In this document: positions 1 to 56,260 of the stretch, in pieces
How the letters are laid out: each line of letters opens with the position of its first letter
How positions within the stretch are numbered: position 1 is the stretch's first letter
Sequence record: PX583170.1
Length of the DNA stretch: 56,260 bases
Direction: 5' to 3' (one strand)
Source of the DNA: a phage
The notes under the pieces: generated by a model
What the model was told of the DNA's origin: nothing
What the model saw: the letters and a program-made list of their open reading frames with translations, nothing else
The model's database searches: none
Position numbers and translations under genes: made by a program

Positions 1-135
1 CGGACTTAAAATACGGTCCCTACCCCAACTTTTTCCTACAGCCTATCGGCTTAATGATAACACCAAGTTAGGCGCTTCGCTTATGAGTCAAGGTCAAAGG
101 CAATCAGAGCACGCTGTTGTAACGAGCTAGTCTTA

Positions 136-157
136 CCATTAGTTGGTTGTGATTATG
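136..157 (+). promoter_or_regulatory. Promoter-motif copy P1 (candidate phage-RNAP promoter) upstream of the RNAP gene
   Basis: ccATTAGTTGGttgtgattatg; shares the CATTAGTTG core with 13 other sites. Confidence 0.4.
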
Positions 158-214
158 AATAGGCTACGCAAGTCTAATCCGTTTCAGTTAAATCATAATC
201 AATTGGAGACTATC

Positions 215-2329
215 ATGACTAATGAAGAATATCGTGCACTGGCTGCTGATGGCGCTCGCTTAAAAGAAGAAGGCCACGGTTGGAAAGACGTGCTTGATAC
301 GATGGACCGTTGCAACCAAATGGTTGATGAAATCACTACTGCTACACAATCCGAAACTAAAACCGAAACTAACTTGGAGACTCGCAAAATGACAACTATC
401 TCAACTCAAACTATCAAATCCGTTGTCCCTGCTATCACGGCTCTGGTATACCGTGCTAAAGAGAAACAGAACTACATGCAGCCTCAGACCTGTGCTATTG
501 CTGCTCTTGCAATCTTCAAGATGATGACCTCATTCACTCGTGATGATGTTGTCCCAGCCATTGCAATGGTTGAGCTGGCTTCTGCTTCTATTGCTGATGC
601 CAACCGTTATAACAACGATTTGAAAGCAATGCACTATGTTGACCCAGCTATCAACCTCATTGGTTTGGCTAAGCACTTTGGCTTCATTACCATGAACGAA
701 GACAAGTCATTCCAACAAACTGATACATGGGTTGAACTGGTTACAACCAAAGACACAGCAGTGCCATTCACTGAGCGTGTTACATCTGAATCTCGTCGCA
801 AGCCTTTCGTTAAAGGTGGCAAAGTTAAGCCATCCAAAACTTTGAAAGCTGCAATCGAATTCCTGCAAGATACTGAGTACCATGTGGAGACTGAGATGGT
901 TCGCATCATCCAGTCCATGCTTGAGCAACGTACCTACGGTGGTTTGCAGATGCCAGAAGCAATCCAGACTGAACTTCATGTTTGGAACAATGCTGTAGCA
1001 ATGATGAATCAGGATAAGCTGTATTCTGACTACTTTGCTGATAACCGTGGTCGCCTGTATCATGTAGCATGTGCTGGCCCTAACCCACAATCCTCTGACT
1101 TTGCTCGTTGCTTGTATTCTCACAATGTTGAGAACATCGTTAAGAAGTTTAACGAAGATGGTTCTACTACCATCGCATACAACATGTTCATGGCAGAGCT
1201 GGAAGATATTTCTGGTGGTGAATGGTGCAGTGCTAAGCGTTTAACTTATGTTGCTCAGAATCCAGCTGGTTCACTTGCTCGCATGATGAACATGCCTAAA
1301 GCTGAACGTCCTTCCAAGCCATTCACTTATGTTCGTCTGGCTCTGGATTGGTTCAAGTTTGAGACTACAGGTGAGTGCGATTCTCGTGTAGGCTTTGGCT
1401 TAGATGCTAAATGTTCTGGTACTCAATATCTGGCATTCATTGCTGGTAACATGGAAATGGCTCGTGCAACAGGTCTGGTTGATTCTGAGACTAAAGCATC
1501 TGACCCATACCAGTTATCTCTTCGTGAACTGTTGAAGTTACTCGACCGTTCTTCAATGAAGCCATCTCCTGAAATCATGGATGAGTTCTTGAATCCGAAA
1601 GCTGGTCGTAAGTTTATCAAAACTCCATACATGGCTATCCAATATGGTGGTGGTAAAGCAGCATTGACTGGTTCTTCTGACTTCATTAGCTACATGACAG
1701 AAGCTCTCCAGATTCCTATGGAGAAAGCTGAGGCATTTGCTGAACTGTGTGTAGAAGCAATCCATAACGCATTGGGTGCTAAGATTAACATGTTCATCGA
1801 GAAAGCTGCTGATGCTGCATACAATCGTTGTGTTGAACTTGGCAAAGAGTACATCACATATCGCCACACTGATGGTCAGGTTGTAATGAAGCCTTGCTTC
1901 CCATCTCGTGAAATCTGTGAGGCATTCAGCATTCGTGTTGATAGTCAAACTCGTGTTATCTTTGGTCAGATTCAGGAGAACAAGCCTTGGACCATTCGTG
2001 AGTCCAATCCAACTAAAGAAGAGTTCAAGCGTACCTTCGTTGTTAACTACATCCAAGGTATTGACGCATTGGTTGCTCGTACTGTTGCAGTTAAAGCTAA
2101 AGAAGCTGGTCTTCGTGGCTTTACTTCAATTCACGATTGTTTCCGTTGCTGCTTAGCTGATGCTCCACGTATGATGGAAGTTATTCGTGCAGCATATGTT
2201 GAAATCTTCGTAACCAACAATCAATTCGAGAATCTGTCTAAGCAACTCGGTGGCATTCAGATGTATCATGAGAACATCGTAACCGAAGAGCTTCTGATGA
2301 GCGAACATGCTTACTACTTCTGTCAATGA
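215..2329 (+). CDS. T7-like single-subunit DNA-dependent RNA polymerase (ORF opens at 143; ATG at 215 has SD ggaga)
   Basis: Motif A-like FGLDAKCSGTQYLAF (T7 DGSCSGIQHF), motif B-like KFIKTPYMAIQYGGG, motif C-like TSIHDCF (T7 HDSF). Shorter than T7 RNAP. Confidence 0.85.
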   Translation: MTNEEYRALAADGARLKEEGHGWKDVLDTMDRCNQMVDEITTATQSETKTETNLETRKMTTISTQTIKSVVPAITALVYRAKEKQNYMQPQTCAIAALAIFKMMTSFTRDDVVPAIAMVELASASIADANRYNNDLKAMHYVDPAINLIGLAKHFGFITMNEDKSFQQTDTWVELVTTKDTAVPFTERVTSESRRKPFVKGGKVKPSKTLKAAIEFLQDTEYHVETEMVRIIQSMLEQRTYGGLQMPEAIQTELHVWNNAVAMMNQDKLYSDYFADNRGRLYHVACAGPNPQSSDFARCLYSHNVENIVKKFNEDGSTTIAYNMFMAELEDISGGEWCSAKRLTYVAQNPAGSLARMMNMPKAERPSKPFTYVRLALDWFKFETTGECDSRVGFGLDAKCSGTQYLAFIAGNMEMARATGLVDSETKASDPYQLSLRELLKLLDRSSMKPSPEIMDEFLNPKAGRKFIKTPYMAIQYGGGKAALTGSSDFISYMTEALQIPMEKAEAFAELCVEAIHNALGAKINMFIEKAADAAYNRCVELGKEYITYRHTDGQVVMKPCFPSREICEAFSIRVDSQTRVIFGQIQENKPWTIRESNPTKEEFKRTFVVNYIQGIDALVARTVAVKAKEAGLRGFTSIHDCFRCCLADAPRMMEVIRAAYVEIFVTNNQFENLSKQLGGIQMYHENIVTEELLMSEHAYYFCQ

Positions 2330-2370
2330 TATTAATTGGTCAAGGATGACCACAAACTTGGAGACTTATA

Positions 2371-2571
2371 ATGAACATTCAACAAATCAATCAAATCGAA
2401 AACTGTTTCAATCCTCATCATACCTGTGACATGAGCAACTTATCTCGTCCTACAGTGGAGGAGACTAAAGACTTCTTAGAATTGTTAGCAGAATATAAAC
2501 AAGAATCGCATGTACTATTGCATGCATATTTGCACAATTCTGGATACTTTGATACAGAAATACCGTTCTGA
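2371..2571 (+). CDS. Hypothetical small protein (66 aa)
   Basis: ATG with SD ggaga 8 nt upstream; followed by a terminator. Confidence 0.5.
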   Translation: MNIQQINQIENCFNPHHTCDMSNLSRPTVEETKDFLELLAEYKQESHVLLHAYLHNSGYFDTEIPF

Positions 2572-2576
2572 TATTT

Positions 2577-2603
2577 GGGAGCTTCGGCTCCCTTTTCTTG
2601 TTT
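2577..2603 (+). terminator. Rho-independent terminator
   Basis: GGGAGC-ttcg-GCTCCC perfect 6-bp stem with UUCG loop, then ttttcttgttt. Confidence 0.75.
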
Positions 2604-2623
2604 CAACTAAGTCGCATAACTCA

Positions 2624-2645
2624 GCATTAGTTGTATGTGAATCTA
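2624..2645 (+). promoter_or_regulatory. Promoter-motif copy P2
   Basis: gCATTAGTTGtATGTGAATcta, directly after the terminator and 22 nt before the next gene. Confidence 0.5.
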
Positions 2646-2666
2646 ATAAACCATTTGGAGCATATC

Positions 2667-2834
2667 ATGTTTACAGTGACCTTAGTAACCTATTATGGCA
2701 AGCAAGTTTGTGAGAAGTTTGAGACTTTGAAAGAAGCCCGTGAGTTTGCAGCTCGTGAAGAGAATATTTATGTAGACTGTGAAATCACAGATGGTGATAA
2801 GCAGTATGAAGTTGTAGCTCCTACACTCAACTGA
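2667..2834 (+). CDS. Hypothetical small protein (55 aa; ORF opens at 2631)
   Basis: ATG at 2667 preceded by tttggag SD; the earlier TTG start lies inside the promoter motif. Confidence 0.45.
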   Translation: MFTVTLVTYYGKQVCEKFETLKEAREFAAREENIYVDCEITDGDKQYEVVAPTLN

Positions 2835-2848
2835 TTCCCAATATTCGG

Positions 2849-2858
2849 ACAATATTGT
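2849..2858. promoter_or_regulatory. Perfect 10-bp palindrome ACAATATTGT (operator-like)
   Basis: Self-complementary; flanked by aatattcgg and gcatgtaatattgt. Confidence 0.35.
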
Positions 2859-2884
2859 TGCATGTAATATTGTCCCGATATTCG

Positions 2885-2906
2885 ACATTAGTTGGATATG
2901 AAGTAA
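2885..2906 (+). promoter_or_regulatory. Promoter-motif copy P3
   Basis: aCATTAGTTGGATATGAAgtaa; followed by hairpin CGGAG-aaata-CTCCG at 2913..2927; no gene for ~1 kb downstream. Confidence 0.45.
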
Positions 2907-3277
2907 AGAATACGGAGAAATACTCCGCATGACATATTGAATCATTCTAGAAACATTCAGCATGTCAGCTTTGAGTTACAGTGTTGTAATGATGTGGCAA
3001 TCATTGAACTCCCTGGGTAGGCCACCTACAGTTCCAGCAACCATGACACAGAGTAGGAATATCTATCCGAAACTTGTACTTCACCTATAGCATGTCTATT
3101 AGCTACAGTATTGTTCCTTCTCCTATTATCAAGGCCCACCCACAAGCCGGGAGATAACTTTGACAAGACTGGAACTTTTGGACATGCTTCTTTCTTTCTA
3201 CAAGAATTTGAAAGAAGAGAAGAAGTCGGACTAAGCCTCTCGTTTTCACGCAGAAGCCGCCCCGATTTTGAGCAACA

Positions 3278-14711: not shown

Positions 14712-15147
14712 TGCAGTTGGATATTTCTAGAGGACGGACGAGCACACTGGAATGTCTTCAATTGGTTTAGTGTGAGAAGCTATGCCAATTTGAAACGTAA
14801 CTCCTTGAGGAAGTGCTCCTCTGGATTTCCCTCCACACAGGAATCTCAAGCCTGTGGCAGTGACTTCGAAGCTGCACTGCGTAACCTAATTCACCCTAAA
14901 GTGAGTTGCCCTGAGCATGGAAATAAACTGCTCAAACCAATGATGCCCACAAAGGTGGGATAAGTTAGGTTGCCTGTTGGTACTTGGGTTCAACACCTGC
15001 TTGCACTCGCAAAGTAGTGCCTCGTACCTGAGATGAAGTGAGTCGGGACCATCAATCCCACGTTATGTCAAAACACAGTAGGCGGCTCACAGATTCTACA
15101 AGCCTCGCAGTTCGGGAAAACCTGCGTTATCAAAACCCACCCAATTT

Positions 15148-15240
15148 GGACGAGTAGCTCAGAAGGTCTGCTCCAGAGCTTAGTCAGGTAGAGCAATCTG
15201 TTCGACAGATGTGTCGTTGGTTCGAATCCAACCTCGTCCA
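15148..15240 (+). tRNA. tRNA-like gene, unusually long (93 nt); anticodon tentatively CAG (Leu)
   Basis: Perfect 7-bp acceptor stem GGACGAG/CTCGTCC, canonical T-arm GTTGG-TTCGAAT-CCAAC, discriminator A; loop GTCAGGT at 15183..15189; the D-arm could not be folded by eye. Confidence 0.5.
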
Positions 15241-15269
15241 CCCACTTTCAACAATAACATGGAGTCCTC

Positions 15270-15410
15270 ATGGACATTGATGCACTAGACAATTTGGACT
15301 TCGGTGCTGCCGAAGAAGCCATTGAAGAACTAAAGAAAAAGCAGGACGAAGAAGCAATCGTTCCTGGTGCTGGCGATAATGACTGCTCAAGCGGTGCGTG
15401 TGCCATCTAA
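15270..15410 (+). CDS. Hypothetical small acidic peptide (46 aa)
   Basis: ATG with SD ggag; ends GAGDNDCSSGACAI; below the ORF-track cutoff. Confidence 0.3.
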   Translation: MDIDALDNLDFGAAEEAIEELKKKQDEEAIVPGAGDNDCSSGACAI

Positions 15411-15418
15411 GGTGATTT

Positions 15419-15655
15419 ATGCAACAGCTTAAATCAGTAATTCTTGGCGTCCTGACTGCATTTGGCATTCTTATTGCAGTGTTCCTCAAAGGCAAAAGCT
15501 CAGGCAAAGCCGAGGAGCGTCAGGAAGCCACAGAGAAGCAACTAGATTCATTAAAAGAATCTATCGAGATTAAATCGCATGTTCAGAAAGAAGTGTCTAG
15601 CAGTTCTGATAGCAATGTCGATAGTGAGTTGCTCTCAAAGTGGGTTCGTAAGTGA
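15419..15655 (+). CDS. Hypothetical small membrane protein (78 aa)
   Basis: N-terminal hydrophobic segment VILGVLTAFGILIAVFL. Confidence 0.4.
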   Translation: MQQLKSVILGVLTAFGILIAVFLKGKSSGKAEERQEATEKQLDSLKESIEIKSHVQKEVSSSSDSNVDSELLSKWVRK

Positions 15656-16625
15656 TTACTGCTTGATTGCACAACCAATTTATTTGGATGTTGCAGAAGT
15701 AAAAATCTTATCACGCGAAACCAAAACACAGATTTTAGTCCACAATGAAACGTGGGCACAAAAGTGTTCGAAACTTACCCGACAGTGAGTTGAACAAAAT
15801 GCTCGCCATCGCATGAACAACATTTGGCAGTCCGGTACGGGACTTTAAACACACGTATATCATAGTCGAGGGAGTGCGCGACTTTAAATAACGAGACTCT
15901 AGCCACTTGTGGTATGGCAGGTGTAACTCCTGCAATTGCTCTGGGCATAACAATTAAAATTGCTGCCTCGTATTGAACGCGAGAAAGTTCAGGTAGTCAC
16001 TTCCTAGAACAGTGGCCGGGAACATACCTAGACAAAAGTGCTTGAGAACGTTAGCTCTGTCTTGCCAGCATTAATGGCACGTTGGCCGCGTAAAGGCCAC
16101 AGCGTCTGGCCAACGTATCGGCCACCAAATTCAATGGGCTAGTGCAAATGTCAGTCACTAGAAGATGTGTTGCAAAACGTCTTCCACGATGTGCAAAGTG
16201 TCAGTCACGTGCCCGCCAATTTCCTCCAACAGTTATGCCTCTGTTCAAAAGGCTCAAGAGAGCGTCTGGCATACCGTAGCGATACGGCTTAGTTGCGCTG
16301 ATTGTGTTGTGCAGAAAGAAAGTTCAGGCTTTCGTTTGGGTTACTCCTCATCCCGAAGTTAGCTGGATTCAAAATCCAGACTATGTTCCTATACACATGA
16401 AATATGCAAGTCGAGGGTTCTTAATGTTCAAACATGATGCGAGCATTAAGCGGGTTTATACTTTTCCCCGATGGTCCCCATAAACAAGGCTGATTCACTT
16501 GGGCGGTTCGAATCAAATTTAATAAGTGTCTTGGCCGCAGTGGAAACATCATTTAAGCCAATGTATTGTAATGTTCGTAATAGTCCACGTCAGGACACTT
16601 ACTTAAATTTTAACTGGAGAGAAAC

Positions 16626-16856
16626 ATGAAAACTGCTGAAATTGCCGAAGAGATTTATAAGGCCGTAATAGCCAGCCAAATCACAAGTGAAGTCCTGCAC
16701 ATGGATATTGAAGAAGTTCGCAATGCCTTTGGTGGTTTTGCAATCTTGTCAATAGAAGCTGCGGAAGCACTGACAAACACGTACAATCAACGCGAATATG
16801 AAAAGCGTTCTGTACTAAATGCGTCGATGAAAGAAATTCAGGCGTCATTAAAATAA
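16626..16856 (+). CDS. Hypothetical protein (76 aa)
   Basis: ATG with SD ctggagag. Confidence 0.45.
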   Translation: MKTAEIAEEIYKAVIASQITSEVLHMDIEEVRNAFGGFAILSIEAAEALTNTYNQREYEKRSVLNASMKEIQASLK

Positions 16857-16912
16857 TACCATTATCATGGTGCGGAGCTAATTAATCTCCCACCATATGA
16901 ACCGGAGAGCAA

Positions 16913-17563
16913 ATGATTACTGCAACACTCGTTGACCACATGGGCAGCGACCTCACAACTGTTAATGCTGCACGAGTTTCTTATGGTGCAGAGTCGCATG
17001 AAATATCTTTACGTGACGAGAAGCTGATTGAGTTTCTTGCAAAGCATAAGCACATTACGCCGTTTCGCCACGCTCAGGTAACATTGCGCTGCAAAGCCCC
17101 AATCTTCATTGCACGTCAGCTTGGCAAACATCAAACGGGCTTTAGTTGGAATGAAGTTAGCCGTCGCTACAAAGATGGTGAAGCAATCTCGATTGAATGC
17201 TTTGTACCAGATGTTGTATTCGGTCGTCCTGAGAAGTTGATGACTCAGACTGCACAACCGTTGCCACAAGATTTTGCTGACGATATTCATTATCGCATGG
17301 AAAGCCATAACAAGGCTTGCATCGCAGAGTATGAAACGTTAATTGGTTTGGGGATTGCCCCAGAGCAAGCTCGCATGGTTCTTCCACAATCCATGATGAC
17401 TACATGGATTTGGACTGGCTCACTTTATGGCTGGGCATCTATGTATAATCAACGTTCCTCCGAACACGCGCAATATGAAGTTCGCTTGTTTGCGGAAGAA
17501 GTGAATAAAATCATGTCAGAACTGTTCCCAATTTGTTGGAAGGCTCTGACCAACCAGGAATAA
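16913..17563 (+). CDS. thyX: ThyX-like flavin-dependent thymidylate synthase with a variant signature motif
   Basis: ARQLGKHQTGFSWNEVSRRY matches the ThyX pattern (RHR-x7-S ... S-x-RY) except that RHR is KHQ; SD ggaga; 10-bp hairpin at 16867..16896 upstream. Confidence 0.65.
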   Translation: MITATLVDHMGSDLTTVNAARVSYGAESHEISLRDEKLIEFLAKHKHITPFRHAQVTLRCKAPIFIARQLGKHQTGFSWNEVSRRYKDGEAISIECFVPDVVFGRPEKLMTQTAQPLPQDFADDIHYRMESHNKACIAEYETLIGLGIAPEQARMVLPQSMMTTWIWTGSLYGWASMYNQRSSEHAQYEVRLFAEEVNKIMSELFPICWKALTNQE

Positions 17564-17567
17564 ATAA

Positions 17568-19331
17568 ATGAACGTCAAGCAATGTGTGGCTAAGATTAAG
17601 CACGATGTACCAGACTGTAAATCCACATCTGGCAAGTCCTTACAGGTTTGGTTGAATGTCGATGAAGCTGGTAATAAGAACTTCTCTGGTTACTGCTTTG
17701 CGTGTGGCGTTCTAGTACCAAATCCTTATGGCAATAATCCGGAGAACATTCCAGAGATTAAAGTCAAGACTCCAGAAGAAATTCAGGAAGAAGTTGATGA
17801 AATCACTGCTTGTCCTCCGTTTGATTTAACCCATCGCAGTATTGAGCCAGAATTCTGGAAAGCTGCTGGTGTTCGACTTCTGTATTCAGAGTATGATGGA
17901 AAGACTCCAAATGCTTTGGCACATGGCTATACCAAAAATGGTAAACTTGTTCGTTGGAAGATTAAACTTCTGAACAAGAAAGTTATGTGGTCGGTTGGCG
18001 ACACCCAGGGTAACGACCCTTACAACTGGATGGCTGCAAAAGCAATTGGCGGTAAGACACTGTTCATCACAGAAGGTGAAGAAGACTGCATCGCATTGCG
18101 TCAAATCCTCAAAACTATGAACCGTGGTGGTGCATATGAAGATTTGGATTTTGCTGTAATTAGTTTGAGTGATGGAAGTGATTCCGTACACAAATGTTTG
18201 TCACCAGTTGCAGAAGAAATTAAGCAACGTTGGGAGCAGGTTGTTATCGTATTTGATGATGATGAACCTGGACGTAAAGCTGCAAAAGAAGCGTGCCGAT
18301 TGTTGCCTGGTGCAATGATTGCAACACTTCCAGCTAACGATGCCAACGATTGTTTGAAGCGTGGCTTGCTAAAAGCTACTCAGTCTGCTGTTGTATTTCG
18401 TGCTGCTCGTCCTCTTCCTACAGCACTTGTCAACAAAGAACTTCTTATGGAGGAACTTGATGACGAGGTTGAACAAGGCGTGGACTATCCTTGGCCCAAG
18501 TTAACCGACTTAATGTTTGGTCAGCGTCGAGCCGAAGTTATTACAATCGGTGGTGCAGAAGGTGGTGGTAAAACTACGCTGTCCCGTCAGATTGTGCATC
18601 ACAACATTACCAAGCATGATTGGGGAGTGTTTACTGCATACATGGAGGAAACTCCTATAGAGACATTGCGCCGAATGGCTGGCCTCAATGACAACTTGCC
18701 ATATTGGGAACCTGCGTTTACTCGTGAAGACCCTCGATATGATGAAGCTAAGTTCCGTCAAACTGCTGCGAAGATGCTTCGTAACATGGAGATTTGGGAC
18801 CGCAAGCAAGCTGGAGAAGACCCTTATGAAACCTGGGATGGGTTAAAGACGATTCTTCGTCAGATTGGACCAGACATTGATATGTTTGTCCTTGATAACT
18901 TAACCTACTTATCGGAAGGGATTTCTGCCTCAGAGAAGAACGACTTCTTAGGTAAGCTGTATGCAGATATTACTAAGCTGGCAGACCAATACCAGTTCCA
19001 TGTGAATATCTTGTCGCACCTTAACCCTGTGGCAAAAGGTCAACGACCTCATGAGGATGGTGGCCGTATTAAGAAGTCAGACTTTACTGGCTCCCGTGCT
19101 GCTGCTAAATATTCTCATGGTATGTTCGGCTTTGAGCGTAATAGCCAGGCAGTTGACCCAAACTGCTCTATTATTCGTTCCATTAAGGCTCGTAAGAGTG
19201 GTAAAACAGAAGGCTTCAAGACGTATTATGACACCGAATCTGGTCGAATTATTCAACGTTCTTGGGACGACTCGCTGTTCGAAACTAAAGAGATTGTTCA
19301 GCTTACTAAGAAGAACGGTCCACATCAATAA
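17568..19331 (+). CDS. Bifunctional primase-helicase (T7 gp4-like)
   Basis: Cys pair CFACG, TOPRIM-like FITEGEEDC and VFDDDEPGRKAA, Walker A GGAEGGGKTT, Walker B MFVLDN. Confidence 0.85.
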   Translation: MNVKQCVAKIKHDVPDCKSTSGKSLQVWLNVDEAGNKNFSGYCFACGVLVPNPYGNNPENIPEIKVKTPEEIQEEVDEITACPPFDLTHRSIEPEFWKAAGVRLLYSEYDGKTPNALAHGYTKNGKLVRWKIKLLNKKVMWSVGDTQGNDPYNWMAAKAIGGKTLFITEGEEDCIALRQILKTMNRGGAYEDLDFAVISLSDGSDSVHKCLSPVAEEIKQRWEQVVIVFDDDEPGRKAAKEACRLLPGAMIATLPANDANDCLKRGLLKATQSAVVFRAARPLPTALVNKELLMEELDDEVEQGVDYPWPKLTDLMFGQRRAEVITIGGAEGGGKTTLSRQIVHHNITKHDWGVFTAYMEETPIETLRRMAGLNDNLPYWEPAFTREDPRYDEAKFRQTAAKMLRNMEIWDRKQAGEDPYETWDGLKTILRQIGPDIDMFVLDNLTYLSEGISASEKNDFLGKLYADITKLADQYQFHVNILSHLNPVAKGQRPHEDGGRIKKSDFTGSRAAAKYSHGMFGFERNSQAVDPNCSIIRSIKARKSGKTEGFKTYYDTESGRIIQRSWDDSLFETKEIVQLTKKNGPHQ

Positions 19332-19396
19332 CAGAGCTGCTACGCTGCATGGTTCGCCCACCAGCGTAGCCCTCACCAATCCATTGGAGCCATACT

Positions 19397-21331
19397 GTGT
19401 TGTATCCTTGGGAAAATATGTATGCCAGTGACATTGAAACAACTGGTCTGTTGGAGCAAATGCGCAAGCAAGCTGCACCACGTCTTCACAACATCGGATA
19501 TATTGATGTTCTAACTCGTGAAGAAACTGTAATAGAGTGGACCGACAGAAAATCTATCCAGGCATTTCTGGACACAGGCCCAACATTAATCATGCACAAC
19601 GGCGCAACCTTTGACTTTGAAGCACTGAGGTTCCTTGGTTACGACGTTTCAAAATGTACCTTAATTGATACTTTGTTTATCAGTTGGTATCTGCAACCTC
19701 GTCGTGTTAAGCACGGCTTAGAAGGTTACGGCGAAGAGTTTGGCGTGCCAAAACCAGTCATTGAAGATTGGGAAAATCAAACTCAAGAAGAATACAACCA
19801 TCGTGTGATGGAAGACTGCAAGATTCAGTTGAAGCTGTGGGAACAGCAATACATTCAACTCTTGAAGATTTATAAATCTCCTAGCGAAGTTAAGCGCTTC
19901 GTTGAATACCTGATGACAAAAGCTCGTCAACAAGTTATTCAACAACGTACTCGCTGGAAGCTGAACATTGAGAAGGCATTGGCGTTTAAGGCCAAGCTGG
20001 AACCAATGATTAAAGAGAAGACGGACGCATTGGAAGCATCAATGCCGCGTGTTCCGGAATATGTTATCAAAACCCGTCCAGCTAAATGCCACAAGATGAA
20101 CGGGCAACTGTCTGCCACTGGGATTAAGTGGAAGGCTATTTGTGATGCAAACGGTTTGGATTGGAAAGACCCAGACCTGGCTATCAAAGTTCTTAAAGGT
20201 TATAAGAAGCCTAATGCTGGTTCCCATGTTCAAATTAAGGATTGGTTGTTCAGCTTAGGCTGGGAACCAGAAACCTTTAAGTTTGACCGCAACAAGGAAA
20301 CGGGTGAAACTCGCCAGATTCCTCAAATCACTGTGAAGGATGAAGATGGCAATCCTGAAATATGTCCGAGCTTGCATAAGCTGGCGGAAAGAAACCCCGA
20401 CTCTGGTATTCAACATCTTATTGGGATGGGCGTGTATAAACACCGTCTGTCTGTTGTTAATGGCTTCCTTCGCGACGTCGATGAAGATGGGTTCCTTACT
20501 GCACGATGCGGTGGCCTTACCAATACTTTACGCCTTAAACATCGCGAACTTGTTAACCTCCCTTCTATTCGTGTATTTGGCGGTGAAGAACTGCGTTCAA
20601 TGTTGGAAGCGTGGCGCGAAGACTACGAACAGTTAGGTTCTGACTTGTGTTCTTTGGAAGACCGCTGTAAGCACCACTTCCAATGGATGTATGACCCTGA
20701 ATACGTTAAGAAGCAGTTGGCACCAGACTATGATGCTCACCTTGCAATTGGCGTAATTGGTGGATTTATTACTGAACAGGAATCTCAGGACCACAAGGAC
20801 GGAATTAAGAAGTGTAAACAACGTCCAATGTTTAAGACCACAAACTATGCTTGTCAGTATGGTGCTGGTGTACCAACTGTAGCCCGTTCTGCTGGCTGTG
20901 ACCAGACCACTGCTGCACGACTGCATAAAGCATATTGGGACTTGAACTGGTCTATTAAAGAGATTGCTGCAAACACCAAAGTTATCACAGTTGATGGTCA
21001 GATGTGGCAACAGAATCCAGTAAACAAATTCTGGTATTCGTTGCGTACAGAGAAAGACCGCTTCTCCACATTGTGTCAGGGTACTGGTGCATATGTGTTT
21101 GATGTTTGGTGTAACAACATCATTGCAATTTGTAACGAACGTTGGGGCTGTGACCCGCTTCTGTCTGGACAATTCCACGATGAATTGATTCTCCAAGTTA
21201 AGAAAGGTTTCCGTGATTTATGGACGGACTTGCTTAATGAAGCAATGGACCGAACCAACAAAGAACTTAAACTTAACCGTGATTGTGCATGTGATGTACA
21301 GTTCGGTGATAACTACGCAGAGATTCACTAA
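19397..21331 (+). CDS. Family A DNA polymerase with 3'-5' exonuclease domain
   Basis: Exo I DIETTGL; motif B-like RPMFKTTNYACQYGAG; motif C-like QFHDELIL. Confidence 0.85.
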   Translation: MLYPWENMYASDIETTGLLEQMRKQAAPRLHNIGYIDVLTREETVIEWTDRKSIQAFLDTGPTLIMHNGATFDFEALRFLGYDVSKCTLIDTLFISWYLQPRRVKHGLEGYGEEFGVPKPVIEDWENQTQEEYNHRVMEDCKIQLKLWEQQYIQLLKIYKSPSEVKRFVEYLMTKARQQVIQQRTRWKLNIEKALAFKAKLEPMIKEKTDALEASMPRVPEYVIKTRPAKCHKMNGQLSATGIKWKAICDANGLDWKDPDLAIKVLKGYKKPNAGSHVQIKDWLFSLGWEPETFKFDRNKETGETRQIPQITVKDEDGNPEICPSLHKLAERNPDSGIQHLIGMGVYKHRLSVVNGFLRDVDEDGFLTARCGGLTNTLRLKHRELVNLPSIRVFGGEELRSMLEAWREDYEQLGSDLCSLEDRCKHHFQWMYDPEYVKKQLAPDYDAHLAIGVIGGFITEQESQDHKDGIKKCKQRPMFKTTNYACQYGAGVPTVARSAGCDQTTAARLHKAYWDLNWSIKEIAANTKVITVDGQMWQQNPVNKFWYSLRTEKDRFSTLCQGTGAYVFDVWCNNIIAICNERWGCDPLLSGQFHDELILQVKKGFRDLWTDLLNEAMDRTNKELKLNRDCACDVQFGDNYAEIH

Positions 21332-24107: not shown

Positions 24108-24852
24108 GCTCCTCGCTGATGGTACAAGATATACAAAGGCTCACGCACATGATTGGGAAGACCCAAACTGTCTTATTCGTGGTCGATGCGAATTGTACAT
24201 CAAAATTGACGGCATACGAGCGATTCGTAATGCTTCTGGTGAGGTATGGAGCCGCAACTCTAAACCTCTCCCTCACTGCGACCATCTCAAATTTAAAGAT
24301 GCAGAAATCTTTCGCGGTTCCTGGAACGAGACTTCATCTATCCTTGGGCGTATCGACCCTCCGACCGTACCGTTATCGCAAGAAAACGTTTACGAGCTGA
24401 GTGATGGTGCTGTTGACCCACGCTTGTACATCGGCTGGTGCAAAGACCCAAGCAATGAAAACCTTAAGGCATTGATGGATAAATATCTGGCGCTTGGTCA
24501 TGAAGGTATCATTGTCCGTGATGCAAAAGGTAAATGGTGGAAGATTGTACCATATAAATATGCCGATGTGAAGATTACTGGTATGAAAGAAGGTACTGGT
24601 GCTCTTAAAGGTATGTGTGGTTCTATCTCCTCAAACTACGGCAGTGCTGGTTCAATGGTGAAAGATTGTCTGGCAGACCACGGTATTCCAGAATCTAACA
24701 CATTGATTCGTAAGTGGTTGTGGGAACATCGCCACGAGCTAATTGGTTCGATTATGCAAGTTCGATATCGTGAGAAGACAGAAGCTGGTAAGTTCCGGTT
24801 CCCGTCACTCGTTCGTTTACGTGCAGACAAAAGTGAGGAAAGTTTTGATTAA
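24097..24852 (+). CDS. ATP-dependent DNA ligase (small)
   Basis: Adenylation motif I KIDGIR; motif IV-like EGIIVRD; downstream KGKWWK. Confidence 0.7.
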   Translation: MSIKLLADGTRYTKAHAHDWEDPNCLIRGRCELYIKIDGIRAIRNASGEVWSRNSKPLPHCDHLKFKDAEIFRGSWNETSSILGRIDPPTVPLSQENVYELSDGAVDPRLYIGWCKDPSNENLKALMDKYLALGHEGIIVRDAKGKWWKIVPYKYADVKITGMKEGTGALKGMCGSISSNYGSAGSMVKDCLADHGIPESNTLIRKWLWEHRHELIGSIMQVRYREKTEAGKFRFPSLVRLRADKSEESFD

Positions 24853-25471
24853 GCGATTAGCTGTTATTCTTAATGGACCTCCTGGCTGCGGTAAAGACAC
24901 CATTGCAAATAAGATTGTTGCTGCCGAGGAACCTTACTTTCTAGGTAAGCGCAAATTCATTAAACACCAGTTTAAGGATGCACTGTATGAGCATACTGCC
25001 AAACACTTTCAAGTTGATGTGGACAAGTTTATTCACTACGCTTCGGACCGTGACCTCAAAGACTCTATCTCCCTTGCAGGTCTTGGTGGCAGAACACCTC
25101 GTCAGGCTCTTATTCACGTTAGCGAAGACGTGTATAAACCTCGCCACGGACAAGACTACTTCGGTAAGGTTGAAGCTGCTCGTGTTGAGGAACTCGCGGG
25201 GCGTATGGGTGGCATTATTAATGTCATTTATCCCGATGGCGGTTTTGGTGATGAAGTCGTTGCCATTGAGTCTGCTTATGATTTTGTCCTCATTGTGCGT
25301 TTGCATCGTGATGGTTTTGATTTCACGGGCGATTCTCGCAGATACATCAACCTCCCAGACACACCTACCCGCGTAACAGTGGACGAACATTTAGTTGATG
25401 GTAAAGTGGGTGATTCTGTATTCAAAGTGTTCAACTGGATTGAACGCGTAACTTATCAAGTAGAGAAATAA
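24845..25471 (+). CDS. P-loop (deoxy)nucleoside monophosphate kinase (TTG start; GTG 24833 alternative; ORF opens at 24743)
   Basis: Walker A NGPPGCGKDT, resembling T4 dNMP kinase as recalled. Confidence 0.5.
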   Translation: MIKRLAVILNGPPGCGKDTIANKIVAAEEPYFLGKRKFIKHQFKDALYEHTAKHFQVDVDKFIHYASDRDLKDSISLAGLGGRTPRQALIHVSEDVYKPRHGQDYFGKVEAARVEELAGRMGGIINVIYPDGGFGDEVVAIESAYDFVLIVRLHRDGFDFTGDSRRYINLPDTPTRVTVDEHLVDGKVGDSVFKVFNWIERVTYQVEK

Positions 25472-25473
25472 TC

Positions 25474-25995
25474 ATGTCTTGTATTACCCAAGTTGTTGCA
25501 GTTAAACGAGTGCATCCTAATGCGAAATTACCTGTGTACGCTACTGCTGGTGCTGCTGCTGCTGATGTTTGCACTATCTCCGATAGCACTGTTGTTATCA
25601 ATCCCGGCTGCTCTGCTGTTTTCGATACTGGCCTCCAATTCGAGATTCCAGTTGGATACGAACTCAAAGTATATAGCCGCTCTGGTCATGGCTTTAAGTC
25701 TGGTATTCGCCTGGCAAACTGCACAGGAATTCTGGACTCCGATTATCGTGGCAATCTTATGGTTAAGTTGCACAACGACTCGGACACAGCCTTTGTGGTT
25801 CAACCAGGTGAACGTATTTGTCAAGTGCAAGTTAGTAAAGCTACTCAACACCATTTCGTTGAAGTTGACCGCTTGAATGCAACTGGTCGTGGCGAAGGTG
25901 GCTTTGGCTCAACTGGTCGTGTGGAACTTGGTCAGCATGAAAGACCACATATTCCAGAAGGCTTGACAGTCCACAATCACAGCATTGCCAAGTAA
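25474..25995 (+). CDS. dut: dUTPase
   Basis: Motifs SRSGHGFKSG and GILDSDYRGNLMV. Confidence 0.85.
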   Translation: MSCITQVVAVKRVHPNAKLPVYATAGAAAADVCTISDSTVVINPGCSAVFDTGLQFEIPVGYELKVYSRSGHGFKSGIRLANCTGILDSDYRGNLMVKLHNDSDTAFVVQPGERICQVQVSKATQHHFVEVDRLNATGRGEGGFGSTGRVELGQHERPHIPEGLTVHNHSIAK

Positions 25996-50940: not shown

Positions 50941-51495
50941 ATGCTATCATTCAAAGTCCTTGCAGTTCTGGCAGCTTTAGTTCACATCAACGCCCCAGCT
51001 TCGGTTGGGGCAGTGAATTCTGCTATTACAGATTTTGCAAGTCATTCTTATTTAAATGGAAGTCTGAAACTATCTTCTTCACAACGCAAAGAGCTAGAAT
51101 GCTACACTAAAGTTATCTGGTATGAAGCTCGCGGAGAAGACAAACATGGAAAGATTCTGGTAGCTAATGTCGTCCGTAATAGAACAGAGTTCGGGAAGCC
51201 ATTCGCTAACACCGTTTGTGATGTTGTCTATCAACGCAATCAATTTGCATGGACACGAGAAGCAAAGAAGAAGAATGCCCAATGGAAGCATGTAGCAAAG
51301 ATTAATTATGCCACAGAACAACAACAAGTTCTGGACACTATTAATGTTGCAATCTCTTTTGTATTATTTAATCAACCCTCTGTCACCAAAGCAACCCACT
51401 TTTGTACAGCATCGGAGAAGTGCAACTTCAAGAATGTTAAAGGTTTGGGACGTTATGGTGGTCATAAATTCTATGAGTATCTAGGAAATCTGTAA
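50941..51495 (+). CDS. Endolysin, SleB-like cell-wall hydrolase with N-terminal signal or SAR segment
   Basis: [24 protein letters not shown]; core [28 protein letters not shown]. Confidence 0.6.
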
Positions 51496-52595
51496 TGGCT
51501 TACACTACCTTTTCACAAACCAAGAATAACCAACTACTGGAGCCAATGTTCTTTGGTCAGAACGTTAACGTTGCTCGATATGACCAACAGAAGTACAGCA
51601 TCTTCGAGAAGTTAATCGAGAAGCAGTTATCTTTCTTTTGGCGACCTGAGGAGGTTGATGTTAGCCAGGACCGAATTGACTATGCTGGTCTGCCTGAATG
51701 CGAGAAGCACATCTTTACCAGCAATTTACGATACCAAATCCTGCTTGATTCCATTCAGGGACGTGGACCAACCACAGTTTTGCTGCCAATTGTGAGCATT
51801 CCTGAGCTGGAAACTTGGATTGAAACTTGGTCATTCTCAGAGACAATTCACTCCCGTTCTTACACACATATTATTCGTAATATTGTTACAGACCCGAGTG
51901 TCATTTTCGACGAAATTGTGGAGAATGAGCACATTAAAATGCGTGCAATCGGCATCTCCCAATATTATGACGAGCTTCAACATCTAACTTCCATGTGGCA
52001 TCTGCATGAAGATAAAGTTTCTCTTCGTGAGCTTAAGAAGAAGCTGTATTTATGCCTCATGTCCATCAATGCACTGGAAGCAATCCGCTTTTACGTCAGT
52101 TTTGCTTGCTCATTTGCCTTCGCTGAACGCAAGTTAATGGAAGGAAATGCCAAGATTATTCGGCTAATTGCTCGTGATGAAGCACTTCATTTGACAGGAA
52201 CTCAACACATGCTGAACCTTCTTGCAAGCGGTGTTGATGACCCAGAAATGGCAGAAATTGCTAAAGAATGTCGTGAAGAATGCCAGAAATTGTTCGAAGA
52301 TGTGGCCCAACAAGAGAAAGATTGGGCCGATTATTTGTTCAAAGATGGCTCAATGATTGGCTTAAACAAGCAAATTCTGTGCGGATATGTGGAATATATC
52401 ACGAATATTCGTATGCAAGCAGTTGGATTGGATGCTCCATTCAAAGGTGCTACTAACCCGATTCCTTGGATTAACGCATGGTTGAATTCGGATGCTGTAC
52501 AAGTTGCTCCACAAGAAACGGAGATTAGTTCGTACCTTGTCGGGCAGATTGACTCCGAAGTGGACACCAATGCCCTGGGCGGATTTGAGCTGTAA
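51495..52595 (+). CDS. nrdB: Class Ia ribonucleotide reductase beta subunit (NrdB); no NrdA in the window
   Basis: Near-collinear with E. coli NrdB as recalled ([11 protein letters not shown]...[11 protein letters not shown]...[16 protein letters not shown]...[17 protein letters not shown]...GQIDSEVDT). Confidence 0.85.
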
Positions 52596-52701: not shown

Positions 52702-53168
52702 AAGAGTAATATTAGGAATGCGTAAAGTTCAAAACCAAATGGTACATGGTCGGTCAACTGTACCTCCTTCGGAGAAGGTACCTGGATAGAAATTCGTTCA
52801 TGGTCGGTCAGCTGTATCTAGCCGAAATTTGTTCGAACAGTTGTCTGACTATGAAATAAATTTTTTTTTATAATTTTTTTTTTATTTTTAAATATTGCTA
52901 CAGAATTAATGAGACTAGAATTCGTAACAAAGCTACGAGACTCGAATTGTTTCAATATTAACGAGACTCAATCTGTGACAATATTATAATTTTTATTTTT
53001 GGGCCAGCGGGGAGGGGAAGCCCAACGTCCTATCGGACTTAAAATACGGTCCCTACCCCAACTTTTTCCTACAGCCTATCGGCTTAATGATAACACCAAG
53101 TTAGGCGCTTCGCTTATGAGTCAAGGTCAAAGGCAATCAGAGCACGCTGTTGTAACGAGCTAGTCTTA

Positions 53169-53190
53169 CCATTAGTTGGTTGTGATTATG
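53169..53190 (+). promoter_or_regulatory. Promoter-motif copy P1 (right repeat copy)
   Basis: Identical to 136..157. Confidence 0.4.
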
Positions 53191-53247
53191 AATAGGCTAC
53201 GCAAGTCTAATCCGTTTCAGTTAAATCATAATCAATTGGAGACTATC

Positions 53248-55362
53248 ATGACTAATGAAGAATATCGTGCACTGGCTGCTGATGGCGCTCGCTTAAAAGA
53301 AGAAGGCCACGGTTGGAAAGACGTGCTTGATACGATGGACCGTTGCAACCAAATGGTTGATGAAATCACTACTGCTACACAATCCGAAACTAAAACCGAA
53401 ACTAACTTGGAGACTCGCAAAATGACAACTATCTCAACTCAAACTATCAAATCCGTTGTCCCTGCTATCACGGCTCTGGTATACCGTGCTAAAGAGAAAC
53501 AGAACTACATGCAGCCTCAGACCTGTGCTATTGCTGCTCTTGCAATCTTCAAGATGATGACCTCATTCACTCGTGATGATGTTGTCCCAGCCATTGCAAT
53601 GGTTGAGCTGGCTTCTGCTTCTATTGCTGATGCCAACCGTTATAACAACGATTTGAAAGCAATGCACTATGTTGACCCAGCTATCAACCTCATTGGTTTG
53701 GCTAAGCACTTTGGCTTCATTACCATGAACGAAGACAAGTCATTCCAACAAACTGATACATGGGTTGAACTGGTTACAACCAAAGACACAGCAGTGCCAT
53801 TCACTGAGCGTGTTACATCTGAATCTCGTCGCAAGCCTTTCGTTAAAGGTGGCAAAGTTAAGCCATCCAAAACTTTGAAAGCTGCAATCGAATTCCTGCA
53901 AGATACTGAGTACCATGTGGAGACTGAGATGGTTCGCATCATCCAGTCCATGCTTGAGCAACGTACCTACGGTGGTTTGCAGATGCCAGAAGCAATCCAG
54001 ACTGAACTTCATGTTTGGAACAATGCTGTAGCAATGATGAATCAGGATAAGCTGTATTCTGACTACTTTGCTGATAACCGTGGTCGCCTGTATCATGTAG
54101 CATGTGCTGGCCCTAACCCACAATCCTCTGACTTTGCTCGTTGCTTGTATTCTCACAATGTTGAGAACATCGTTAAGAAGTTTAACGAAGATGGTTCTAC
54201 TACCATCGCATACAACATGTTCATGGCAGAGCTGGAAGATATTTCTGGTGGTGAATGGTGCAGTGCTAAGCGTTTAACTTATGTTGCTCAGAATCCAGCT
54301 GGTTCACTTGCTCGCATGATGAACATGCCTAAAGCTGAACGTCCTTCCAAGCCATTCACTTATGTTCGTCTGGCTCTGGATTGGTTCAAGTTTGAGACTA
54401 CAGGTGAGTGCGATTCTCGTGTAGGCTTTGGCTTAGATGCTAAATGTTCTGGTACTCAATATCTGGCATTCATTGCTGGTAACATGGAAATGGCTCGTGC
54501 AACAGGTCTGGTTGATTCTGAGACTAAAGCATCTGACCCATACCAGTTATCTCTTCGTGAACTGTTGAAGTTACTCGACCGTTCTTCAATGAAGCCATCT
54601 CCTGAAATCATGGATGAGTTCTTGAATCCGAAAGCTGGTCGTAAGTTTATCAAAACTCCATACATGGCTATCCAATATGGTGGTGGTAAAGCAGCATTGA
54701 CTGGTTCTTCTGACTTCATTAGCTACATGACAGAAGCTCTCCAGATTCCTATGGAGAAAGCTGAGGCATTTGCTGAACTGTGTGTAGAAGCAATCCATAA
54801 CGCATTGGGTGCTAAGATTAACATGTTCATCGAGAAAGCTGCTGATGCTGCATACAATCGTTGTGTTGAACTTGGCAAAGAGTACATCACATATCGCCAC
54901 ACTGATGGTCAGGTTGTAATGAAGCCTTGCTTCCCATCTCGTGAAATCTGTGAGGCATTCAGCATTCGTGTTGATAGTCAAACTCGTGTTATCTTTGGTC
55001 AGATTCAGGAGAACAAGCCTTGGACCATTCGTGAGTCCAATCCAACTAAAGAAGAGTTCAAGCGTACCTTCGTTGTTAACTACATCCAAGGTATTGACGC
55101 ATTGGTTGCTCGTACTGTTGCAGTTAAAGCTAAAGAAGCTGGTCTTCGTGGCTTTACTTCAATTCACGATTGTTTCCGTTGCTGCTTAGCTGATGCTCCA
55201 CGTATGATGGAAGTTATTCGTGCAGCATATGTTGAAATCTTCGTAACCAACAATCAATTCGAGAATCTGTCTAAGCAACTCGGTGGCATTCAGATGTATC
55301 ATGAGAACATCGTAACCGAAGAGCTTCTGATGAGCGAACATGCTTACTACTTCTGTCAATGA
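53248..55362 (+). CDS. T7-like single-subunit RNA polymerase, second copy
   Basis: Protein identical to 215..2329. Confidence 0.85.
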   Translation: MTNEEYRALAADGARLKEEGHGWKDVLDTMDRCNQMVDEITTATQSETKTETNLETRKMTTISTQTIKSVVPAITALVYRAKEKQNYMQPQTCAIAALAIFKMMTSFTRDDVVPAIAMVELASASIADANRYNNDLKAMHYVDPAINLIGLAKHFGFITMNEDKSFQQTDTWVELVTTKDTAVPFTERVTSESRRKPFVKGGKVKPSKTLKAAIEFLQDTEYHVETEMVRIIQSMLEQRTYGGLQMPEAIQTELHVWNNAVAMMNQDKLYSDYFADNRGRLYHVACAGPNPQSSDFARCLYSHNVENIVKKFNEDGSTTIAYNMFMAELEDISGGEWCSAKRLTYVAQNPAGSLARMMNMPKAERPSKPFTYVRLALDWFKFETTGECDSRVGFGLDAKCSGTQYLAFIAGNMEMARATGLVDSETKASDPYQLSLRELLKLLDRSSMKPSPEIMDEFLNPKAGRKFIKTPYMAIQYGGGKAALTGSSDFISYMTEALQIPMEKAEAFAELCVEAIHNALGAKINMFIEKAADAAYNRCVELGKEYITYRHTDGQVVMKPCFPSREICEAFSIRVDSQTRVIFGQIQENKPWTIRESNPTKEEFKRTFVVNYIQGIDALVARTVAVKAKEAGLRGFTSIHDCFRCCLADAPRMMEVIRAAYVEIFVTNNQFENLSKQLGGIQMYHENIVTEELLMSEHAYYFCQ

Positions 55363-55403
55363 TATTAATTGGTCAAGGATGACCACAAACTTGGAGACTT
55401 ATA

Positions 55404-55604
55404 ATGAACATTCAACAAATCAATCAAATCGAAAACTGTTTCAATCCTCATCATACCTGTGACATGAGCAACTTATCTCGTCCTACAGTGGAGGAGACTA
55501 AAGACTTCTTAGAATTGTTAGCAGAATATAAACAAGAATCGCATGTACTATTGCATGCATATTTGCACAATTCTGGATACTTTGATACAGAAATACCGTT
55601 CTGA
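55404..55604 (+). CDS. Hypothetical small protein, second copy
   Basis: Identical to 2371..2571. Confidence 0.5.
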   Translation: MNIQQINQIENCFNPHHTCDMSNLSRPTVEETKDFLELLAEYKQESHVLLHAYLHNSGYFDTEIPF

Positions 55605-55609
55605 TATTT

Positions 55610-55636
55610 GGGAGCTTCGGCTCCCTTTTCTTGTTT
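55610..55636 (+). terminator. Rho-independent terminator, second copy
   Basis: Identical to 2577..2603. Confidence 0.75.
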
Positions 55637-55656
55637 CAACTAAGTCGCATAACTCA

Positions 55657-55678
55657 GCATTAGTTGTATGTGAATCTA
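55657..55678 (+). promoter_or_regulatory. Promoter-motif copy P2 (right repeat copy)
   Basis: Identical to 2624..2645. Confidence 0.5.
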
Positions 55679-55699
55679 ATAAACCATTTGGAGCATATC

Positions 55700-55867
55700 A
55701 TGTTTACAGTGACCTTAGTAACCTATTATGGCAAGCAAGTTTGTGAGAAGTTTGAGACTTTGAAAGAAGCCCGTGAGTTTGCAGCTCGTGAAGAGAATAT
55801 TTATGTAGACTGTGAAATCACAGATGGTGATAAGCAGTATGAAGTTGTAGCTCCTACACTCAACTGA
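55700..55867 (+). CDS. Hypothetical small protein, second copy
   Basis: Identical to 2667..2834. Confidence 0.45.
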   Translation: MFTVTLVTYYGKQVCEKFETLKEAREFAAREENIYVDCEITDGDKQYEVVAPTLN

Positions 55868-55917
55868 TTCCCAATATTCGGACAATATTGTTGCATGTAA
55901 TATTGTCCCGATATTCG

Positions 55918-55939
55918 ACATTAGTTGGATATGAAGTAA
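55918..55939 (+). promoter_or_regulatory. Promoter-motif copy P3 (right repeat copy)
   Basis: Identical to 2885..2906. Confidence 0.45.
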
Positions 55940-56260
55940 AGAATACGGAGAAATACTCCGCATGACATATTGAATCATTCTAGAAACATTCAGCATGTCA
56001 GCTTTGAGTTACAGTGTTGTAATGATGTGGCAATCATTGAACTCCCTGGGTAGGCCACCTACAGTTCCAGCAACCATGACACAGAGTAGGAATATCTATC
56101 CGAAACTTGTACTTCACCTATAGCATGTCTATTAGCTACAGTATTGTTCCTTCTCCTATTATCAAGGCCCACCCACAAGCCGGGAGATAACTTTGACAAG
56201 ACTGGAACTTTTGGACATGCTTCTTTCTTTCTACAAGAATTTGAAAGAAGAGAAGAAGTC

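Follow-up and report, generated by a model that had tools for sequence, protein, structure and literature searches.

A Lys-His-Gln ThyX in a phiEcoM-GJ1-like coliphage carries the standard motif of a large, mostly phage-borne subfamily of flavin-dependent thymidylate synthases

The published signature of the flavin-dependent thymidylate synthase ThyX is RHRX7S (Myllykallio 2002, as cited in PMC2826268). In structures of the Mycobacterium tuberculosis and Helicobacter pylori enzymes, the Arg-His-Arg triad hydrogen-bonds the AMP phosphate, the ribityl chain and the FMN phosphate of FAD, and its first arginine also contacts the isoalloxazine ring; further FAD contacts come from a second subunit, through Ser71 and Arg190 in M. 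tuberculosis or Arg165 in H. pylori (PMC6514825). In the Thermotoga maritima enzyme (TM0449; PDB 1kq4, 1o26), R78, R80, S88 and R90 have been counted as hydrogen-bonding dUMP, in PBCV-1 ThyX the side chain of Gln89 fills the dUMP phosphate pocket, and a flexible loop has been described in ThyX (PMC3498832). PBCV-1 ThyX (A674R; PDB 2cfa, 4fzb) is a biochemically characterized viral member of the family.

The fold is shared by PolB (PDB 4p5a), a flavoenzyme of an antibiotic gene cluster that acts as the polyoxin UMP/dUMP C5-methylase. PolB contacts the nucleotide phosphate through Arg82, His83, Ser96, Ala97, Arg98 and Arg166, the ribose O3' through Glu94 and Arg86, and the base through Arg193 and Arg98, and its selectivity has been traced to Loop 1 (residues 117-131), Loop 2 (192-201) and Tyr99/Tyr126 (PMC5003785).

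Here, we describe a thyX gene in a 56,260-nucleotide phage sequence (record PX583170.1), referred to below as the window, whose product reads Lys-His-Gln at the place of the Arg-His-Arg triad. The window is the genome of a phiEcoM-GJ1-like coliphage of the genus Carltongylesvirus (Chaseviridae). The 8-kb stretch around thyX has 98% nucleotide identity to Escherichia phage flopper and 93-97% to ST32, Bp7 and phiEcoM-GJ1, all of which belong to Carltongylesvirus. The features discussed in the text are collected in the table.

Table. Features of the window that bear on the thyX gene and its metabolic context.
Feature	Position	Strand	Basis
thyX, flavin-dependent thymidylate synthase, K-H-Q / S-R-R-Y subfamily, 216 aa	16913..17563	+	PF02511, TIGR02170, PHROG 85, 1kq4
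ThyX motif region A67-RQLG-K72-H73-Q74-TGF-S78-WNEV-S83-R84-R85-Y86	17111..17170	+	direct sequence reading
Shine-Dalgarno-like GGAGAGC 5' of the thyX ATG	16899..16905	+	sequence
DNA primase/helicase gene, same replication module	17568..19331	+	ORF list and annotation of homologous records
dNMP-kinase-like P-loop protein, presumed dTMP to dTDP step	24743..25471	+	PHROG 139
dUTPase, presumed dUMP supplier	25474..25995	+	PF00692 E=6.8e-23; PHROG 135 E=1.4e-61
NrdB-like (ribonucleotide reductase small subunit), orphan	51495..52595	+	PF00268 E=2.9e-49

The thyX reading frame runs on the + strand from an ATG at 16913 to a TAA at 17561-17563, and the primase/helicase gene starts 4-5 nt beyond the stop. 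In annotated relatives, too, thyX comes shortly before the genes for primase/helicase and DNA polymerase. The Chaseviridae orthologs (phiEcoM-GJ1, ST32, flopper, PO103-1, PYps23T and Erwinia phage Y2) are 72-99.5% identical to the window protein, carry KHQ...SRRY, occupy the same position before the primase/helicase gene and are all annotated ‘thymidylate synthase’. The closest of them is the protein of PO103-1 (99.5% identity), that of PYps23T is 85% identical, and ORF38 of ST32 is listed with the same CGGAGAGcaaATG as the window gene (PMC6266442). A scan for promoters and terminators around thyX gave none exceeding the shuffled expectation.

The initial annotation of this gene, made from the letters alone, had called the product ThyX-like, and the Pfam and TIGRFAM models and the predicted fold all agree. 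PF02511 matches residues 5-206 over profile positions 1-190 of 191 (E=9.5e-43; 146.6 bits against a cutoff of 24.8), the TIGR02170 equivalog model scores 133.1 bits against a cutoff of 87.9, and PHROG 85 matches with E=7.7e-72. Among solved structures, T. maritima ThyX (1kq4) is the closest relative, found by HMMER with E=1.7e-28 and 33% identity. In a Foldseek comparison of an AF2 model (pLDDT 80.5, pTM 0.77) with the PDB, the top 50 matches were all T. maritima ThyX, the best one with a TM score of 0.76 and the highest TM score reaching 0.78. The model is disordered over residues 73-80, the motif loop, where pLDDT falls below 50, a confidence too low for motif geometry to be read from it; the low value fits a loop that is ordered only in the FAD- and dUMP-bound tetramer. 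The gene thus encodes a full-length, family-typical ThyX and is already known, being recorded as ‘thymidylate synthase’ in dozens of GenBank records.

Residues 67-86 read ARQLG-KHQ-TGFSWNEVSRRY. In the HMMER alignment, K72, H73 and Q74 stand opposite R78, H79 and R80 of T. maritima ThyX (native numbering, i.e. chain numbering minus a 12-residue tag), and S83-R84-R85-Y86 stands opposite S88-G89-R90-Y91, so that S83 equals S88 and R85 equals R90. MAFFT gives the same register for the triad. The earlier reading of the triad as Lys-His-Gln was therefore correct, and the alignment that it had asked for as a safeguard against a misread register rules out such an error. The window protein also has one extra residue before S78-W-N-E, with KHQ-x8-S where T. 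maritima has RHR-x7-S. Read literally, RHRX7S finds only its histidine and serine in the window protein, across a spacer one residue longer; nearly all of the 150 nearest representatives described below fail it in the same way, which argues that the signature is too narrow for this branch and not that the protein lies outside the family. Across the whole alignment, the window protein departs from T. maritima ThyX by RHR to KHQ, the one-residue loop extension, S-G-R-Y to S-R-R-Y, N163S, R165Y and N169S. PBCV-1 ThyX has the same fold and, unlike the window protein, keeps both R-H-R and the x7 spacing, and it is a distant match (E ~1e-9).

A private or recent substitution is ruled out by the distribution of the motif. 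Among 120 homologs with 65-96% identity, 118 carry KHQ and the remaining two KHA and KHS. At this level of identity, 80 alignment columns are invariant, all catalytic positions included; a 23-sequence subset shows no variation at K72 and H73, and conservation of Q74 is 90% or more. To look further afield, we searched 1.84 billion cluster representatives (50%-identity clusters) exhaustively with HMMER, which returned 7521 matches, of which the best 150 were aligned. KHQ is the majority state here as well. In these best 150 of 7521, the position of T. maritima R78 is Lys in 131 and Arg in 18, and that of R80 is Gln in 83, Lys in 21, Thr in 17 and Arg in only 7. The same 150 have Arg at the G89 position in 138 cases, Ser at the N163 position in 132 and a loop one residue longer than that of T. 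maritima in 123, and just one retains Arg at the R165 position. At the N169 position, 99 of the 150 have Arg, and the window protein has Ser. The changes R78K, non-Arg at R80, G89R (giving SRRY for SGRY), N163S and non-Arg at R165 thus co-occur as a package.

The package K-H-Q/K, SRRY, S163 and non-Arg165 is found in phages of widely differing type: Erwinia phage Y2 (Chaseviridae), Salmonella phage SeKF_80 (Grimontviridae), an E. coli Kuravirus, Pseudomonas phage K4 (Zobellviridae), the Roseobacter podophage CRP-125 (Autographiviridae), and Vibrio phage VBP47 and Klebsiella phage GADU21 (Schitoviridae), the last with Asn at 163. Aeromonas phage LAh_6 has the K-H package with SMRY for SRRY, and Bacillus phage Eoghan and Streptomyces phage Karimac have K-Y-V/A variants of it. 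R-H-R together with SGRY, N163 and R165 is seen in Thermus phage T72, Gordonia phage Gravy, Mycobacterium phage McWolfish and cyanophage S-RIM12, with the deviations SQRY in S-RIM12 and D163 in T72. The solved enzymes with a readable motif (T. maritima, Thermus thermophilus and PBCV-1) are all RHR, with SGRY in the first two, SQRY in PBCV-1, N163 throughout, and R165 except in T. thermophilus, which has His there; no K-H-x/SRRY structure occurs among these PDB matches, and a K-H-x/SRRY ThyX with a biochemical assay, a thyA complementation or a crystal structure was not found in the searchable literature. Overall, at least six phage families and chromosomal genes of TM6 bacteria share the variant motif, and KHQ represents the usual form of the triad in a very large ThyX subfamily carried mostly by phages.

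The bacterial members were sought by scanning one genome per GTDB species with the subfamily alignment. This gave 80 loci in bacterial genomes and metagenome-assembled genomes (MAGs), many of them on short MAG contigs or in probable prophages, and in none of the 80 is the third triad position Arg. A coherent group comes from TM6/Dependentiae/Babeliales and reads R/K-H-T/S...SRRY, which suggests that the subfamily is native to this lineage. In the TM6 bacterium GW2011_GWF2_37_49, a 124-kb contig carries thyX (R-H-T...SRRY) beside a gene for a class II aminoacyl-tRNA synthetase; directly 3' of thyX is a dCTP deaminase gene (dcd; PF22769) whose start abuts the thyX stop (locus L075 9890..11265). 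From this context, we infer that the pair is a housekeeping one, dcd for dUMP supply and thyX for dTMP synthesis; its chromosomal setting indicates that enzymes without the third arginine serve as ordinary thymidylate synthases. Similar thyX genes were seen in about 10 TM6/Babeliales/Dependentiae genomes.

The residues that handle the nucleotide are intact in the window protein. With T. maritima equivalents in brackets, it keeps H47 (H53), R68 (R74), Q69 (Q75), H73 (H79), E81 (E86), S83 (S88), R85 (R90), Y86 (Y91), E151 (E144), R154 (R147), R181 (R174) and Q187 (Q180). By the roles assigned in PMC5003785 and PMC3498832, all residues that bind the uracil, ribose and phosphate of dUMP are present, as is the folate-stacking histidine: in T. 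maritima numbering, R174 for the uracil, R74, Q75, S88, R90 and R147 for the phosphate and E86 for the ribose, with His53 stacking on the folate and Tyr91 also shared. PolB can be laid on the same frame with an offset of 8 from T. maritima, taken from S96-A97-R98-Y99 against S88-G89-R90-Y91. On this mapping, the PolB phosphate contacts would fall on R68, Q69, S83, R84, R85 and R154 of the window protein, its ribose contacts on E81 and K72, and its base contacts on R181 and R85, so that the residues recognizing base, sugar and phosphate of dUMP all appear to be retained.

What has changed is the surroundings of the FAD phosphates. The T. maritima arginines R78, R80 and R165, which address the phosphates and ribityl chain of FAD, are replaced by K72, Q74 and Y172, and the full set is absent; we take T. 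maritima R165 to be the counterpart of M. tuberculosis R190, presumably so from its nine-residue spacing to the uracil-binding arginine. From the alignment, K72 reads as a conservative swap for the arginine in contact with the 3'-OH and the flavin, and Q74 and Y172 as replacements of arginines in the FAD-phosphate shell. R84, the arginine gained by the subfamily, could plausibly supply a compensating charge, because it occupies the position at which PolB (Ala97) and PBCV-1 (Gln89) reach the phosphate pocket.

Judged by its sequence and surroundings, the window protein is very probably an ordinary dTMP-forming ThyX. It would act as a homotetrameric flavoenzyme in which NADPH reduces FAD and the flavin relays the methylene group of CH2H4folate to C5 of the stacked dUMP, yielding dTMP and H4folate; this chemistry is established for ThyX (reviewed in PMC5954106) and is extended to the window protein by homology. 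The dUTPase would feed the enzyme by turning dUTP into dUMP, and the dNMP-kinase-like protein would take the product onward from dTMP to dTDP. Since ThyX regenerates H4folate, the phage would need no dihydrofolate reductase, and its dTTP supply could be raised without recourse to this enzyme or to ThyA of the host. A genome of 44% GC (the figure for flopper) would presumably demand dTTP beyond that for which the host pool is tuned. The FAD/nucleotide phosphate shell would be built unlike that of the characterized enzymes, with K72, Q74, the longer loop, R84, Ser at position 163 and Y172, and the lack of the R80 and R165 equivalents could alter how tightly FAD is bound or the geometry of the cofactor.

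The initial annotation had placed the dUTPase, dNMP kinase and NrdB genes nearby. All three are present; only the first two share the replication module with thyX, about 7-8 kb downstream of it, and the NrdB-like gene lies at the far end of the genome. The kinase assignment comes from PHROG 139, ‘deoxynucleoside monophosphate kinase’ (E=9.1e-39), with only a weak P-loop match in Pfam. We considered this gene as a candidate 5-hydroxymethyl-dU DNA kinase and set it aside, there being no hydroxymethylase and the PHROG being that of a dNMP kinase. No large-subunit gene accompanies the NrdB-like gene elsewhere in the genome, and a lone NrdB without a large subunit is likewise found in ST32 and GJ1 (PMC6266442).

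From the changed triad and these neighbors, the initial annotation had gone on to suggest an altered substrate specificity and possibly a pyrimidine modification other than thymidylate synthesis. Such an enzyme would make 5-hydroxymethyl-dUMP or a dCMP or UMP derivative and thereby start a modification of the DNA bases. The canonical triad is indeed altered, R78 and R80 figure in a published list of hydrogen bonds to dUMP (PMC3498832), and PolB is a ThyX homolog with a widened substrate range. However, the base-, ribose- and phosphate-binding residues are all conserved, and RHR mainly binds the phosphates and ribityl chain of FAD, not the base (PMC6514825, PMC5003785). The selectivity of PolB maps off the triad, to Loop 1, Loop 2 and Tyr99, and PolB keeps an arginine, Arg86, at what would be the first triad position; this weakens the step from a changed RHR to a changed substrate. 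PolB also resides in its antibiotic cluster, whereas the window gene belongs to a phage replication module and its product is nearer to T. maritima ThyX (1.7e-28) than to PolB (E=1.2e-19). K-H-(Q/K/T) is, moreover, the norm across unrelated phage families and TM6/Babeliales chromosomes, and its occurrence in at least six phage families and in TM6 genes paired with dcd fits a housekeeping reaction.

The phage enzymes known to act at C5 of pyrimidines for this purpose, the ThyA-family dUMP and dCMP hydroxymethylases of the T4 gp42 and SPO1 gp29 type, have the ThyA fold, use no flavin and come with downstream kinases or transferases in the same phages; the window ThyX is unrelated to them in fold and in chemistry. 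Neither the larger unassigned ORFs scanned nor the annotated relatives include a hydroxymethyl-pyrimidine kinase, an amino-acid or sugar transferase, a glycosyltransferase or another hypermodification enzyme, and the combination expected of a hypermodification pathway (a C5-hydroxymethylase with downstream genes, and restriction resistance at T-containing sites) is absent from the ORFs scanned and from a relative's DNA. That relative is PYps23T, whose DNA was cut normally at the T-containing site of NdeI (CATATG): digests with NdeI and MbiI matched the in-silico pattern except for the 2.3-kb terminal repeat (PMC8762354). Coming from two enzymes and the DNA of a relative, these digests speak weakly against bulk replacement of thymine. 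We consider a change of substrate or product very improbable, and KHQ is no ground for expecting an exotic DNA base. A different possibility is that dTMP is still made and the flavin is handled unusually, with a looser or exchangeable FAD, an altered conformation of its ADP moiety, or FMN in its place. It draws on the FAD phosphate and ribityl contacts made by RHR and by Arg190 of M. tuberculosis or Arg165 of H. pylori (PMC6514825), on the near-complete loss of Arg at the third triad position and the Arg165 equivalent throughout the subfamily, and on the co-occurrence of the changes as a package. Set against this, each of Lys72, His73 and Gln74 remains a potential hydrogen-bond donor, and Arg84 or other residues may supply the missing charge; we regard unusual flavin handling as quite unlikely. 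Departure from the published signature, in a phage of a host (E. coli) that already has ThyA, might also suggest a decaying or inactive relic that is passively carried. This has next to no likelihood, given an intact, full-length reading frame, strong conservation among relatives at 65-96% identity, conservation of the motif variant itself, and 120 homologs in which no frameshifts or stops were seen.

With the window protein read as an ordinary dTMP-forming ThyX, its importance for this phage is low: the gene is an annotated thymidylate synthase, and there is no sign of modified DNA. What mild novelty there is concerns the subfamily and not this gene. An evolutionary survey dropped sequences deviating from RHRX7S by more than two residues (PMC2826268), and the branch may be under-described as a result of this filtering. 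The signature misses a large share of viral ThyX, so that motif filters of this kind mislead, as do arguments for an ‘unusual enzyme’ that start from the same motif. A wider proposition is that K-H-(Q/K/T)...S-R-R-Y ThyX forms a distinct, very abundant and never-characterized lineage with a rewired flavin/nucleotide phosphate shell; in this strong form, we think it rather unlikely. Its home, if it is true, would be mainly phages and TM6/Babeliales bacteria, and the rewiring would consist of the loss of two FAD-binding arginines and the gain of a new one beside the dUMP phosphate. Flavin binding or exchange might then differ, or the enzymes might escape inhibitors of canonical ThyX.

phiEcoM-GJ1 carries an HNH endonuclease gene between thyX and the primase/helicase gene (16986..17429) and a second in the interval between primase/helicase and DNA polymerase (19254..19739); both are absent from the window, and homing endonucleases seem to favor the replication module as a site of insertion. 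Several metagenomic ThyX proteins of the subfamily (P0121, P0214, P0226, P0257, P0185 and P0205) are 470-600 aa long and contain an intein with an HNH domain (PF14890 and PF01844). The intein site falls exactly in the motif, between K-H-x-x-G-F/M/A and S/C-W/E-N/S-E. P0185 and P0205 have a second large insertion, without a Pfam match, directly after the conserved histidine equivalent to H47.

Upstream of thyX, between the Rz-like spanin region and a small ORF at 16626..16856, about 0.8-1 kb (~15800..16620) is without a convincing ORF. Its counterpart in phiEcoM-GJ1 (14961..16028 of that record) is also without annotation, and Rfam gave no match to the stretch at E<0.1. Slightly farther upstream, 15177..15232 on the + strand matches RF00005 over model positions 9-63 with 27.9 bits, below the gathering score of 29, and ARAGORN found no tRNA in the window. 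At the corresponding place in GJ1, a tRNA-Arg is annotated that ‘may contain an intron’, and only a subset of the relatives has the tRNA gene (PMC8762354). The match may represent a degenerate or interrupted tRNA.

The two ends of the window are identical, positions 1..3227 repeating 53034..56260 with 0 mismatches, which leaves a unique genome of 53,033 bp. The RNA polymerase ORF is present twice through this repeat (143..2329 and 53176..55362). A direct terminal repeat could account for these 3227 bases, as could read-through of a circular or concatemeric assembly; among relatives, a terminal repeat of 2.3 kb has been shown for PYps23T and one of ~2.6 kb has been reported for Y2 and PM1.
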